The notes under the pieces are model-generated. The model saw only the letters and a program-made list of their open reading frames with translations. It did not search any database and was not told the origin of the DNA. Shown here in pieces: positions 36,850 through 42,316 of a stretch of 64,000 nucleotides of DNA. Location: NCBI RefSeq assembly GCF_048403405.1, contig NZ_CP183129.1. One strand, given 5' to 3'. This DNA comes from Escherichia coli. GTDB lineage: Bacteria; Pseudomonadota; Gammaproteobacteria; Enterobacterales; Enterobacteriaceae. The position numbers and the translations under genes were made by a program. Within the stretch, counting starts at the first letter, position 1. Each line of letters begins with the position of its first letter.

Positions 36850-38073
36850 TTATGGGATTATATTCTGGTAATGATTTGATAAGCGAATTCTTTTGCCAGT
36901 TGGTGTTTCTATTTCCACCCCATAATTTATAGTTTTTTCATCAGGTAGCGATCTCTTTAAATAAGGTGCGCATGACATTTTTTTTGGGTTAAGCGTCTCG
37001 CGTTGAAATACTTCGAATTGATATTCAGACATTTCTGCCCATGTTTGAATTTTATTGTATCGGGAGAGTGTCGTAAAGGCTTTAACTTGCTTATAACATT
37101 GTTTTTTGAATTCTTGCTGATATTTTAATATGTCATTGTATGAAATATTGGTTATCCTGGCCTCTAAGAATTTAATTATTGTCGAAGCAATTTCCGCTTT
37201 TGCTCGTAAAAAGTTGTCATTAATGGTTAATAATGTTGAAAATAAACCTTCGATTTGTTTGTCAAGATATTGTTCGTCTTTATATAATTTTGGGGCAGGG
37301 TGTTCTTTATGTGAAAAAATAGTGTCACCTAAATTTGCGTCAGTGAAATTTATATTAAGTAGATCTTCGAAATAAAACCTTGACAAGGTTAGAACGAACC
37401 CGGACAGGTTCTGTCCTGTCATATTGAAATCAATAAAGTTGGTTCCGGCAAAGACTTTCATCCTGTTTTTATTTTCACTGTGCTCAATATATAACTTCGT
37501 CATTTTTTGATACAGGTTTTGAATATCTTTTATATTAGTCGGTAAGTCAGCTCGTTGTTCAGCAATAAAATTAGTATCTGAAAACATGGTTTGGACACTG
37601 AATCTTACTGGTATTCCCTCTTCTACGCTAATTTTAGTTATGATTGCCTTGTCGGGTTTAGGATTAGCGACAACAATGATTCGACATTCAGCACTTTTGT
37701 TTTTTTCGTATCTAATGTTATTAATCTGATTAAGTATTGATTGTGTCTGTTGCGTAAGTGGTGTCGAACTTATCGTTTCAATGTTAGTAATAAGACTTAC
37801 AAGTTGAGTCACAACTTTTGAGTATTCTGCATTTGTATATGTAGTGTTCGTGTGGCACGCATTAATTTGTTGGAGTTGTTGTTGCGCTAAATCAAATTGT
37901 TCAGCGTTATATCCTTCTTCAGACAATGAAAAATTAATGGGTTGCTGTTCTTCCTGATTATCACAAGGCCACATCGGTGTGTCTGGTGTTTTAACATTGT
38001 CGGTATCTGTTGTGCGGTTATAAATATCGCCGTGATATGTATTTATCATACCTGGGGTAAAGTCAATTGACAT
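36850..38073 (-). CDS. Hypothetical 407-aa protein with a C-terminal pentapeptide-repeat region; possibly the intact form of yhiS
   Basis: Long ORF in AT-rich DNA; residues ~205-250 show a 5-residue periodicity ([43 protein letters not shown]); sits where K-12 carries the IS5-disrupted yhiS remnant. Confidence 0.6.
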
Positions 38074-38652
38074 AACATTCCTTATTGTTCATCTATTTCG
38101 CTAAATTTTTTAAATCGGAAAATTAGAGCAGGAATGGATTTTCTTCTACGCGGAAATAAACACAATGCGTCATATCTTCCTGATATAATTACCTTTAACT
38201 TCCCTTTCATTTCCACCCGGTAATATTTGTGTATAAAAAAAGGGCAGTGATAGTATCGTAAAGGAAAACGTTAACAACTATCAAAAAGCGCTCATTTTAA
38301 AAAGTTATGATGTTCACCGATAGTGTGTGAAGTGATATTTTTGTGATGTTTTAGATGTGTAATAATGAACCAGGTTAAAGTGTATTTAAAAATGTGTTGT
38401 ATTGGCGACTGAAATCTGCCCTTTAAAAGGGGGGATAGCACTGAAACAAAGAGACATTGCTTCTCCGATAAAATGTCAGAGAAGCATGATTGCGTGGTGA
38501 TTGTCGATTGATGACTTACTGACGGATCCGTCATCATTCTCAATGCAATAGTTAAATTATTTGTGATTTTTAAGGATTATCCTGTCTATGATTTTCTACT
38601 TAGAAGGATATGGCACTAACTATGCATCTTATAGTTTACTGCTGGCATCTAT

Positions 38653-39666
38653 TTAAAATAGCATTTGAGTCAAATAGCCCATCAAGATAGCCATACCTAA
38701 GATAACCGTCAGGAATGCAACTATCATCGGCATTCTGAACATTGATTTAAGTAATATCACTTCCGTCAGGCTTGCGCCGGCACTGCCGATGATTAATGCC
38801 ATTAATGCTCCCAGACCCATTCCTTTTGTCATCAGAACAGCTGCCAGAGGGATAACCGCCTCTGCCCGGATATACAGCGGAATTCCGACAACGGCGCTCA
38901 ATGGGATGGCGAAGGGATTATCTGCCCCTGCATGAGCGGCAATCCACTCTGAGGGAATAAAGCCATAAATAAAAGAGCCTATTAATACCCCCAACAAAAG
39001 ATATGGCAGTACATCTTTAAACTGTTGCAACGCATCTTTGGTGGCTAGTTTTATGGGATTAATACTTACCACAGCTTTGGTACTGCAACAGGGAACTACG
39101 GGTTTCTCAATGGCTTTAGCCGCTGGACTACAGCAACTCACTTTTATTGGCATATATGTCGTCCCCGGCGAAGTTTTGGCTTGAGCACAACAATTTGCTG
39201 ATGAGCTTTTACTGGCAATGATATGACGTTCAAATCCCAGAGAATCCAGGATAATACTGGCAAGTACGGAGACGCCGGCGGCGATAATCGCGTACAACAA
39301 GGTAACTTTCCAGCCAAAGGTCACCCACATTAACCCGACGATAATGGGATTAAGTAATGGGGAAACAAATAAAAAAGTGAGGGTCGGACCAAACCCGGCT
39401 TTCGCTGATAACAATCCACGTAACATGGGGATTGTCGAGCAACTACAGAACGGGGTAACGGCTCCCAACAGAGCAGCCAGGAGATAACCTCTCCCTTTTC
39501 TGGCCCCCATCATCTGCTGGATTTTATGGTCTGGCACCTTTTGTCTTATCAGGCTCACACCGGCACTAATCACTATAAACAGCAAAGAAAGCTCAACGGC
39601 GAGAAACACAAACATCTCTGCGGCATCTTGCAGCATCGCAAGCCAACTACTCATACGTAACCTCAT
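38653..39666 (-). CDS. DUF318 / ArsP-like permease with Cys-rich loop
   Basis: 337 aa, about 8 TM segments; TPFCSCSTIP motif; central hydrophilic loop with three vicinal Cys pairs (NCCAQ...VSCCSP...VPCCST). Confidence 0.75.
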   Translation of the reverse strand: MRLRMSSWLAMLQDAAEMFVFLAVELSLLFIVISAGVSLIRQKVPDHKIQQMMGARKGRGYLLAALLGAVTPFCSCSTIPMLRGLLSAKAGFGPTLTFLFVSPLLNPIIVGLMWVTFGWKVTLLYAIIAAGVSVLASIILDSLGFERHIIASKSSSANCCAQAKTSPGTTYMPIKVSCCSPAAKAIEKPVVPCCSTKAVVSINPIKLATKDALQQFKDVLPYLLLGVLIGSFIYGFIPSEWIAAHAGADNPFAIPLSAVVGIPLYIRAEAVIPLAAVLMTKGMGLGALMALIIGSAGASLTEVILLKSMFRMPMIVAFLTVILGMAILMGYLTQMLF

Positions 39667-39761
39667 TGAATAAATCTATATTTCCAGAATAATCGAAATG
39701 AAATTCAGATCAAGATATTTCTGGTATTATCGAAATATCAACCAGACAAAGGGGGTGTCAT

Positions 39762-40058
39762 ATGCAGTTGGAAGAAGTTGCTAAAGCGCTGAAAGAGCTA
39801 GGTCACCCGACCCGTTTGTTCATATTCAAACACCTGGTCAAAGCGGGGGAACAAGGTTTGCCGGTCGGTGAGTTGCAAAAGCAGCTTGGGATACCCGGCT
39901 CTACACTCAGTCACCATATTTCAGCACTGGTATCGGTAGGGCTGGTCAAACAAAACCGTGAGAGTCGAACGCTGATGTGTGTTTCGCAATACGCAATGCT
40001 GGAAGCGATAATTGAATTCTTACGCGAGGAGTGCTGCGTAAATAGCAAAATTGCCTGA
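39762..40058 (+). CDS. ArsR/SmtB-family winged-helix regulator (non-canonical, C-terminal ECCV)
   Basis: 98 aa; HTH region (LPVGELQKQLGIPGSTLSHHISALVSVGLV) typical of ArsR/SmtB; divergent from the permease gene; lacks the ELCVCDL metalloid site of canonical ArsR. Confidence 0.7.
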   Translation: MQLEEVAKALKELGHPTRLFIFKHLVKAGEQGLPVGELQKQLGIPGSTLSHHISALVSVGLVKQNRESRTLMCVSQYAMLEAIIEFLREECCVNSKIA

Positions 40059-40106
40059 TGCGCTACGCGCTACAGATTTCATGCCATGCACGGTTTTGTA
40101 GGTCGG

Positions 40107-40180: not shown

Positions 40181-40606
40181 TTATTTCAAGCGTTTACCCG
40201 CTTCATCAACCACTTTCTCGCCATCTTCCTTGGTGAACGCGCCTTGTTGCGCATCTGGCAGAATTTCCAGCACCACTTCTGAAGGGCGACACAGGCGAGT
40301 TCCCAGCGGCGTCACCACAATCGGGCGATTAATCAGAATCGGGTGCTGAAGCATAAAGTCGATTAACCGATCGTCAGTAAATTTATCTTCTGCAAGGCCC
40401 AGTTCCTCATACGGCTCGACGTTTTTACGCAGCAGCGCGCGTACGGAAATCCCCATATCGGCAATGAGTTTGACCAGTTCATCACGCGTCGGTGGGGTTT
40501 CCAGATAATAGACGATGGTCGGTTCTGTACCGCTGTTGCGGATCATCTCCAGCGTATTACGCGACGTACCGCAGGCCGGGTTGTGATAAATGGTAATGTT
40601 GCTCAT
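40181..40606 (-). CDS. arsC: Arsenate reductase (glutaredoxin-coupled)
   Basis: 141 aa; MSNITIYHNPACGTSRNTL with the catalytic Cys. Confidence 0.95.
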   Translation of the reverse strand: MSNITIYHNPACGTSRNTLEMIRNSGTEPTIVYYLETPPTRDELVKLIADMGISVRALLRKNVEPYEELGLAEDKFTDDRLIDFMLQHPILINRPIVVTPLGTRLCRPSEVVLEILPDAQQGAFTKEDGEKVVDEAGKRLK

Positions 40607-40618
40607 ATCAATATCTCA

Positions 40619-41908
40619 TTACAAAGTGAAAGAGAGACGTAGCGCCAGCGCAGCCAGCGTCACAAAAAGCACCGGCAGGGTCATGATAATCCCTGTACGG
40701 AAGTAATATCCCCAGCTGATAGTCATATTCTTCTGCGAAAGAACGTGCAGCCAGAGTAGCGTAGCCAGGCTACCAATTGGGGTAATTTTCGGCCCCAAAT
40801 CGCAGCCAATCACGTTGGCATAAACCATCGCTTCTTTGATAACGCCAGATGCCGTGCTGCCATCAATGGACAACGCGCCAACCAGTACCGTCGGCATATT
40901 GTTCATAATAGAAGAGAGGAAGGCGGTGAGGAATCCGGTGCCGAGCGTCGCGGCCCACAGGCCGTTTTCCGCCAGCACGTTGAGTACGCCAGAAAGATAT
41001 TCCGTTAGTCCGGCATTGCGCAGGCCATAAACCACCAGATACATGCCGAGCGAGAAGATGACAATCTGCCAGGGCGCACCGCGTAGCACCTTACCCGTAT
41101 TAATTGCATGACCGCGTTTAGCGACGGCAAATAATATCAGCGCGCCCACTGCCGCAATGGCGCTGACCGGAATGCCGAGCGGTTCCAGAACGAAAAATCC
41201 CACCAGCAGAAGCAGTAAAACAACCCAGCCAGTTTTGAACGTAGCAGGATCTTTAATCGCTTCTGCGGGAGATTTCAGCAGCGCCATGTCGTAGTTCTGC
41301 GGAATATCTTTGCGGAAATAGAGATGCAACATCACCAGCGTGGCAACAATCGCGGCGATATCCACCGGCACCATCACCGAGGCATATTCGCGAAAGCCGA
41401 GGCCAAAGAAATCTGCGGAAACGATATTCACCAGGTTGGAGACAATAAGCGGCAGGCTGGCGGTATCGGCAATGAACCCGGCCGCCATCACGAACGCAAG
41501 CGTCGTGCCTTTACTGAACCCTAAAGCCAGCAGCATGGCGATGACAATCGGTGTCAAAATAAGCGCCGCGCCATCATTGGCAAACAGAGCTGCAACGGCA
41601 GCACCGAGCAGGACAATCCAGGTAAACAGCAAGCGACCGCGTCCATTGCCCCAGCGTGAGACGTGCAGCGCTGCCCATTCAAAAAAGCCGGACTCATCCA
41701 GCAGCAGGCTGATGATAATAACGGCAATAAACGCAGCCGTCGCGTTCCAGACGATATTCCACACCACCGGAATATCACCCGGATGTACCACGCCCGTAAC
41801 TAACGCCAGTACTGCGCCGAGTGTTGCACTCCAGCCGATGCCTAAACCTTTCGGCTGCCAGATAACCAATACGATGGTCAGGACAAAGATAGCGCCTGCC
41901 AGTAACAT
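40619..41908 (-). CDS. arsB: Arsenite/antimonite efflux permease
   Basis: 429 aa from [13 protein letters not shown]...; polytopic membrane protein. Confidence 0.93.
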
Positions 41909-41962
41909 AATGCCTCCCGGAAAAAACACATGTGCAAATCCATATGTGTTTAGATAAATTTT

Positions 41963-42316
41963 TTAACTACAAATGTTCTTACTGTCTTCGGAACAATTTT
42001 GTCGAGCCAGGTTGCGGACAATCACCTGAACCTTTTCCTGTTCGCATCGCCAGGCCTGCTCAATAATTTTCGCGGCCCATGATGGAATATGCGGTGATAA
42101 GCGGTAATGAACCCACTTACCCTGCTTGCGATCCAGCAATAGCCCACTTTCACGCAGCAATGCCAGGTGGCGGGATATCTTGGGCTGCGACTGATCGAGG
42201 GCAGTACAGAGATCGCAGACGCATAATTCTCCCAGCTCGCTGAGCAGTAAAACGATGCCCAGACGGGTTTCATCAGCAAGAATTTTGAACAGTTGGATGG
42301 GTAACAGAAATGACAT
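41963..42316 (-). CDS. arsR: Arsenical resistance operon repressor
   Basis: 117 aa; ELCVCDL metalloid-binding motif within the HTH. Confidence 0.95.
   Translation of the reverse strand: MSFLLPIQLFKILADETRLGIVLLLSELGELCVCDLCTALDQSQPKISRHLALLRESGLLLDRKQGKWVHYRLSPHIPSWAAKIIEQAWRCEQEKVQVIVRNLARQNCSEDSKNICS

Follow-up and report, generated by a model that had tools for sequence, protein, structure and literature searches.

Two related boxes between a divergently oriented permease gene and its neighbouring regulator gene are probably operators of that regulator, a putative repressor of the SpArsR type. From sequence features and by analogy with related systems, we propose that both divergent genes are repressed through these boxes and that a trivalent arsenical relieves the repression. 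The boxes lie in a 64,000-nucleotide stretch of Escherichia coli DNA, referred to here as the window, a term that denotes the whole stretch analysed. Each is a 24-bp pseudo-palindrome, and the two are 37 bp apart. R1, the permease-proximal candidate operator (39678–39701, ATATTTCCAGAATAATCGAAATGA), has a 5-10-5 architecture with arms ATTTC and GAAAT around a 10-bp centre. R2, the regulator-proximal candidate operator (39715–39738, ATATTTCTGGTATTATCGAAATAT), is contained within a perfect 8-10-8 inverted repeat, GATATTTC-N10-GAAATATC, that extends one base further on each side (39714–39739). Neither box is assigned to a strand. The arrangement itself is ordinary: repressor-operator control of divergent ars genes is textbook, and no concept is changed by it.

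The permease gene (38653–39654, minus strand) encodes an ArsP_1-family (PF03773) protein of 333 amino acids when read from the PGAP start, with a TPFCSCS motif and a cysteine-rich central loop. The regulator gene (39762–40058, plus strand) encodes a 98-amino-acid ArsR/SmtB protein of the SpArsR/AfArsR type, with a Cys91-Cys92 sensing pair, a conserved Cys73 and no third C-terminal cysteine. An earlier note on this DNA had placed the repeats between divergent start codons. This placement holds, but the permease start is more likely at 39654 (MSSWLAML...) than at 39666, the ATG of the longer open reading frame; 39654 is preferred because it is the RefSeq/PGAP start, because orthologues align there and because a GAGG lies 6 nt upstream. 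With the permease ATG at 39654, the intergenic region therefore spans 39655–39761, a gap of 107 bp with 32% GC. The permease Shine-Dalgarno sequence is this GAGG (39661–39664, minus strand, 6 nt before the ATG at 39654), seen as a CCTC that is kept in the alignment of orthologous loci. For the regulator, AGGGGG (39750–39755, plus strand) was read from the sequence, and a GAGG-like block is partly conserved at this place. RefSeq annotates no feature in the intergenic region among the twelve E. coli records listed. The gene pair adjoins the canonical chromosomal arsRBC operon (40181–42316, minus strand), and the 1.5 kb from 38600 to 40100 are 100% identical to E. coli strain TUM14771. Downstream of the permease lies a 407-amino-acid open reading frame (36850–38073, minus strand) with no Pfam or NCBIfam match; in TUM14771, PGAP annotates the corresponding region as a frameshifted hypothetical pseudogene.

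The permease matched the Pfam model ArsP_1 (PF03773) with 180.1 bits (cutoff 32.3) over positions 3–293 of the 294 in the profile. Its best partial matches in NCBIfam were to the SO_0444 Cu/Zn-efflux and SaoE families, both below the equivalog cutoffs (111.3 vs 300 and 89.9 vs 325, respectively). An ArsP from C. jejuni has been shown to carry out efflux of MAs(III) or trivalent roxarsone (PMC6205960). The central loop of the window's permease (residues ∼150–200) contains three vicinal cysteine pairs (ANCCAQ, VSCCSP and VPCCST), separate from the TPFCSCS motif in the N-terminal half. Loop length differs among orthologues, as evidenced by the gaps needed in tblastn alignments. The loop might be a thiophilic substrate-binding or sensing element.

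Placement of the regulator in the ArsR/SmtB family follows from its matches to NCBIfam NF033788 (61.9 bits, cutoff 55) and to the Pfam models HTH_20 (54.2, cutoff 27) and HTH_5 (29.9, cutoff 22). Its best match among solved structures was AfArsR (PDB 6J05, E = 4.7e-10), with the EECC of the regulator (Cys91-Cys92) aligned to the ENCC that contains Cys95/Cys96 of AfArsR. This vicinal C-terminal pair is invariant in 35 homologues, and Cys73 is conserved in nearly all orthologues. The protein ends in ...EECCVNSKIA, six residues after the pair, and so has no third C-terminal cysteine. In PMC11868830 and PMC13236881, the lack of a cysteine equivalent to AfArsR Cys102 is given as the criterion for the MAs(III)-selective type. 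A persulfide sensor of the BigR/SqrR type was also considered and set aside, as the match was only sub-threshold and there is no cysteine at the N-terminal position used by those sensors. Among orthologues, those at loci L012, L014, L027, L029, L030, L032 and L034 carry a third cysteine 5–7 residues after the pair. One example is CCVNSHCT in Aeromonas australiensis, which recreates a three-cysteine site like that of AfArsR. In the E. coli protein, whose C-terminus is encoded in 40030–40058, only the pair is present. Gain or loss of this one residue may be how the regulator clade changes between As(III) and MAs(III) selectivity.

That the repeat pair is real and not a product of chance was confirmed by shuffling. 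The best direct match of 22 nt within the 107-bp region has 18 identities, a value that none of 5000 dinucleotide-preserving shuffles reached (mean 13.1, maximum 17), and a perfect 8-10-8 inverted repeat occurred in 0.34% of 5000 shuffles. The 64-kb window, for which 0.12 matches to ATTTC-N10-GAAAT were expected, contains two, and both fall in this gap; two or more were seen in 0 of 100 shuffles. A weight matrix built from orthologous sites scored R1 at 35 bits and found no further match of at least 12 bits in the window. The sequence elements named in the earlier note were recovered. Its shared aTCGAAAT corresponds to ATCGAAAT at 39692–39699 and 39729–39736, and its internally complementary core consists of TTCCAGAA (39683–39690) and TTCTGG (39719–39724), which are mutual reverse complements. 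Its size of 19–20 nt per element did not stand; the site is larger and is best described as a 24-bp dyad.

The repeat search also returned a 37-nt head-to-tail tandem pair (39678–39714 and 39715–39751, 70% identity) and showed that the R1 and R2 copies are inverted repeats of each other as well. We did not adopt the 37-nt unit as the functional unit, and favour the 24-bp dyads, because the tail of each unit (CAGATCAAG/CAGACAAAG) is conserved only in Escherichia. There, the similarity between R1 and R2 runs on into the tails CAGATCAAG (39702–39714) and CAGACAAAG (39739–39751), the second of which is not conserved outside the genus. The tails may record the origin of the second box, or they may be due to chance. 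A third, overlapping box at 39670–39693, suggested by an inverted repeat, was likewise not adopted because its left arm is not conserved in the alignment.

Orthologous loci were collected by scanning one genome per species with a regulator peptide pattern, which yielded 30 loci. By tblastn, a divergent permease was found directly upstream of the regulator in 21 of 36 loci. Intergenic regions from 18 loci in five genera (Escherichia, Citrobacter, ten Aeromonas species, Buttiauxella and Limnobaculum) were aligned, and conservation was expressed as the mean majority fraction. Values were 0.98 for R2, 0.87 for R1 and 0.91 for the TCAAG just left of R2, compared with 0.53 for the spacer, 0.57 for the permease leader and 0.52 for the regulator leader. 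Phylogenetic footprints are thus seen at both boxes, amid spacer and leader sequence that differs between genera. The three close chromosomal alleles in E. coli differ by substitutions and one indel, all outside both 24-bp boxes. In the divergent E. coli E69 allele and in plasmid alleles there are a few differences inside R1, and E69 differs at one R2 position as well.

The position of R2 is also kept. In each of the 18 close orthologous loci the box starts 44–47 nt before the ATG of the regulator gene, as it does in SAR92, Neptuniibacter and Amphritea, three of four more distant loci with the divergent arrangement. The fourth, on an Enterobacter plasmid (L004), has its box start at −35. Among the 18 close loci, 14 have the boxes 37 bp apart and four have them 39 bp apart; in distant loci the distance is 53–108 bp. 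Because of this last range, cooperative or phased binding is not claimed.

To follow the box into other gene arrangements, a weight matrix derived from the close orthologues only was used to scan 17 independent loci (∼90 kb) at a threshold of 12 bits. Matches of at least 12 bits were obtained in 12 of the 17 loci, and all but one, a weak match elsewhere, preceded the regulator gene, the permease gene or a gene next to them. The consensus obtained is ATATTTCYR-N6-YRGAAATAT. On Klebsiella plasmids, ATATTTCTATTATTCTGGAAATAT lies 48 nt upstream of the gene for a 63%-identical ArsR that heads arsR-arsH; regulators in the 60–80% identity band are encoded by ∼2,200 plasmids. Two boxes are found upstream of arsP in K. 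oxytoca, and one upstream of the gene for a 45%-identical ArsR heading arsR-arsC-arsC-acr3-arsH in Sphingopyxis. Ahead of the permease gene, a Desulfobacterales metagenome-assembled genome (MAG) and Parendozoicomonas carry 9-6-9 palindromes that are perfect or nearly so. In Endozoicomonas (L025 and L027, ∼2457–2480), a variant box, ATGTTT(T)C...GAAACAT, occupies the canonical position ∼44 nt before the regulator start. The two arms have changed together, as is predicted for a site bound by a symmetric dimer. No convincing box was found at the Photobacterium loci L023 and L024 or at the Oceanospirillales MAG locus L031. Across these arrangements the box follows the regulator clade and not the permease. 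On a K. pneumoniae plasmid (L003, 4046–4591), annotation places a sigma-70-family sigma factor gene between the arsH and arsD of an ars cluster, and the box is also present at the arsR-arsH promoter of this cluster.

In the window itself, no ATATTTC-N10-GAAATAT box is present at the arsRBC promoter or anywhere else in the 64 kb. Cross-regulation with arsRBC through the box is unlikely for this reason, and cross-talk with the neighbouring arsRBC promoter was dropped from consideration.

Promoter elements were placed by consensus scoring, and in the favoured placement the boxes would overlap the candidate elements of both genes. For the regulator, an extended −10, TGgTATTAT (39722–39730, hexamer 39725–39730, plus strand), is predicted at the centre of R2, ending 31 nt before the ATG; it ends 28–31 nt before the regulator ATG in 17 of 22 divergent loci. 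For the permease, a putative −35, TTGATC (39708–39713, minus strand), abuts R2, and a putative −10, TATTCT (39686–39691, minus strand), falls at the centre of R1, with 16 nt separating it from the −35 and 31 nt from the permease ATG. These two hexamers match only 8 of 12 consensus positions in the window. The TCAAG that flanks the −35 is the one conserved at 0.91; as −35, most Aeromonas loci have TTGACC, and L004, L029, L032 and L033, all distant loci, have a perfect TTGACA. The combination TTGAC(C/T)-16-TATT(C/T)T occurs at the same place in eight loci (L001, L008–L012, L014 and L016), and six more have a weaker −35. Read toward its own gene, each box has the putative −10 at box positions 11–16, and this consensus-level placement recurs across loci. 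Note that −10-like hexamers inside the boxes are partly expected from composition, since both boxes are AT-rich.

Other placements can be made. An alternative or additional plus-strand promoter, TTGAAT-16-AATAAT (39666–39693), runs through R1 and is conserved only among enteric alleles; the plasmid allele L001 has a perfect TTGACA in place of the TTGAAT. On the minus strand, TTGATA-18-TATCTT can be placed over R2. Both of these rival placements score equal to the favoured promoters.

In the mechanism we propose, one repressor dimer would bind each 24-bp dyad. Occupancy of R2 would block the regulator's own extended −10, giving autorepression, together with the permease −35, and occupancy of R1 would block the permease −10 and start region; with both boxes occupied, both divergent genes would be off. 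Binding of a trivalent arsenical at Cys91-Cys92 would release the repressor and turn the permease on. By analogy with SpArsR, the inducer would be a trivalent organoarsenical; with the third cysteine missing, methylarsenite or aromatic arsenicals seem likelier candidates than inorganic arsenite. This choice of inducer is drawn from cysteine content alone, and Cys73, being conserved, might in principle serve as a third ligand. The autoregulated ArsR/SmtB-type repressor controlling both genes that the earlier note had expected is thus supported by the family match, the footprints, the link between box and clade and the experimentally validated SpArsR-repressed fragment described below, which carries the same box.

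The boxes could be the repressor's operators even if the signal were something other than an organic arsenical, such as As(III)/Sb(III), Cu/Zn/Cd, or a redox or persulfide signal, with the permease exporting the corresponding substrate. Partial matches of the permease to the SO_0444 Cu/Zn-efflux and SaoE families point in this direction, as do weak partial matches of the regulator to BigR, CmtR and Rv2640c-type models, but the NCBIfam matches are far below their cutoffs (111 vs 300, 38 vs 155). Cys73, given its conservation in nearly all orthologues, could provide a third ligand; against this, the S. putrefaciens orthologue, which has the same cysteine set, is induced by MMAs(III) but hardly by As(III). 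In genera other than Escherichia and Citrobacter the module often lies away from ars genes, yet the closest paralogues reside inside ars clusters, beside arsH, arsC, acr3 and arsD. The closest solved structure is, moreover, that of an arsenic sensor, AfArsR, with the cysteine pair aligned. We consider a signal of this kind unlikely, and an organoarsenical signal is retained.

Could the boxes instead be core-promoter sequence (−10, extended −10, −35 or UP-like AT tracts) or the site of a host global regulator? Hexamers resembling −10 and −35 elements can be placed in and beside both boxes on both strands, and the region has a GC content of only 32%. Promoter function leaves unexplained the dyad symmetry, which extends to the outer ATAT/ATAT arms, as well as the symmetric co-variation of the Endozoicomonas arms (ATGTTT..AAACAT). 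In addition, the box recurs before different genes in alpha-, gamma- and deltaproteobacterial hosts, always beside a member of the regulator clade, and a host-specific global regulator would not track a mobile module across hosts and plasmids. This explanation is very improbable. We give hardly any credence to an account in which the boxes have no DNA-binding role and are either the neutral remnant of a 37-bp tandem duplication or a hairpin in a 5′-leader RNA. The head-to-tail 37-nt pair at 70% identity would suit a duplication and R2 can form an 8-bp hairpin, but conservation is limited to the 24-bp dyads, and the rest of the 37-nt unit is not conserved outside Escherichia. Folding of the leader RNAs was no better than that of shuffled sequence (z-scores −0.49 and +0.64), and with the inferred transcription starts most of each box would not be transcribed. 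A search of 39400–40100 against Rfam gave nothing at E ≤ 1, and an RNA element was rejected on these grounds. Operators of the adjacent repressor thus remain the preferred reading of both boxes.

Of 5426 complete E. coli genomes, 2385 (∼44%) contain the intergenic region, at 2249 chromosomal and 364 plasmid places, and O157:H7 is included. A regulator 95–99% identical is encoded by 623 plasmids in PLSDB. On one plasmid, pXH992_2 (L001, 911–6125), an 84%-identical allele of the pair directly adjoins IS26 and mph(A)-mrx(A)-mphR(A), a macrolide-resistance cluster. R1 of this allele is a perfect 16-bp palindrome, ATTATTCTAGAATAAT.

For an intergenic region that carries no annotation, the analysis provides a regulatory model with base-level predictions, and the consensus box can be used for predicting regulons of SpArsR-type repressors. 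Close to half of sequenced E. coli, together with many plasmids, may harbour an efflux switch that probably responds to organoarsenicals, which is relevant to arsenical feed additives, to gut arsenic metabolism and to biosensor design. A broader proposal is more tentative, and we hold it with slightly less than even confidence: that ATATTTCYR-N6-YRGAAATAT is a so-far undescribed common operator of the whole SpArsR/AfArsR-like clade, and that arsR-arsP is a working methylarsenite sensing and efflux module. So read, the clade would extend from the chromosomes of E. coli and Aeromonas to arsR-arsH plasmids of Klebsiella, to Sphingopyxis and to Desulfobacterales. A full-text search, with the primary SpArsR, AfArsR and ArsP papers outside its range, found no paper containing any of six 16-mers from the boxes, and no paper joining “AfArsR” with “inverted repeat” was found in the searchable literature. 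If the module does work in this way, exposure to organoarsenicals could co-select plasmids that carry arsR-arsP, of which there are hundreds, the one examined having it beside IS26 and mph(A).

The boxes can be compared with the 12-2-12 operators of SmtB, CzrA and CadC and with the NolR operator, which are AT-rich imperfect dyads of ∼24–28 bp, located over promoters and recognised by winged-helix dimers. The half-site and spacing of ATATTTCYR-N6-YRGAAATAT are, we presume, unlike the TGAA-N6-TTCA type core of 12-2-12 sites. Several members of this group were found as weak structural-sequence matches of the window's regulator. Canonical ArsR, as in R773 and in the window's own arsR (41963–42316), belongs to the same superfamily and is a homodimeric repressor that binds an imperfect dyad over its own promoter and is released by a trivalent arsenical. 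The chromosomal ArsR has diverged so far that it was not among the tblastn matches of the regulator in this region at an E-value limit of 1e-5. According to PMC11868830, the sensing site of canonical ArsR is in the DNA-binding domain, at Cys32/34/37. The R773-type system next door thus differs in its sensing site, and there is no box at its promoter.

AfArsR of Acidithiobacillus ferrooxidans is a type-2 protein whose As(III) site comprises Cys95, Cys96 and Cys102, according to published descriptions. It has no equivalent of Cys73, which the window's regulator possesses. Some orthologues from Aeromonas, Neptuniibacter and Desulfobacterales have an AfArsR-like third cysteine 5–7 residues after the pair; the window's protein lacks that cysteine, so its C-terminal residues cannot build a three-coordinate As(III) site like that of AfArsR. 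NdArsR, a second MAs(III)-responsive ArsR (PMC12124457), is ∼34% identical to the window's regulator. The arsRM promoter of Noviherbaspirillum denitrificans (PMC12124457, Text S3), which NdArsR controls, contains ACATTTC-N9-GAAATAT, a box with the same arms that differs in having a centre one base shorter and a low weight-matrix score. It directly follows a TTGACA.

The closest known system is SpArsR-arsP of Shewanella putrefaciens 200 (Sput200_1227/1226), whose ArsR is described as MAs(III)-selective (Chen, Nadar & Rosen 2017, as cited in PMC11868830 and PMC12124457). For comparison, the protein was obtained by translating the arsR printed in the supplement of PMC12124457, and against this translation, whose extracted text has a few dropped bases, the window's regulator is ∼54% identical. 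The recognition helices, PGSTLSHHISAL, are identical, and Cys91-Cys92 align with Cys101/102. As in the window, arsP is adjacent to arsR, cysteines 83/101/102 correspond to 73/91/92, and there is no third C-terminal cysteine; SpArsR differs in an extra N-terminal stretch of ∼10–12 residues. In PMC12124457, a 222-bp fragment from upstream of S. putrefaciens 200 arsP drives gfp and is repressed by SpArsR. Derepression of this biosensor is given there as 73% of the no-repressor level with 1 µM MMAs(III) and 9% with 50 µM As(III).

The S. putrefaciens 200 arsP-arsR fragment contains ATATTTCTGGTATTATCGAATTAC, identical to R2 of the window over the first 20 nt, and a second box, TAATTTCTGGAATTATGGAAATAT, 108 bp from the first. 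ATATTTCTGGTATTATCGAATTAC lies ∼40 nt before an ATG that follows GAGG and was taken as the arsR start. A fragment ending in this ATG behind GAGG agrees with a divergently oriented arsR. In Shewanella the intergenic region, at 222 bp with boxes 108 bp apart, is longer than that of the window, at 107 bp with boxes 37 bp apart. An orthologous repressor thus acts on a fragment that carries the same boxes. The window shares with the SpArsR-type module the family HMM matches, the vicinal cysteine pair, the missing third cysteine, an ArsP_1 permease and the box itself.
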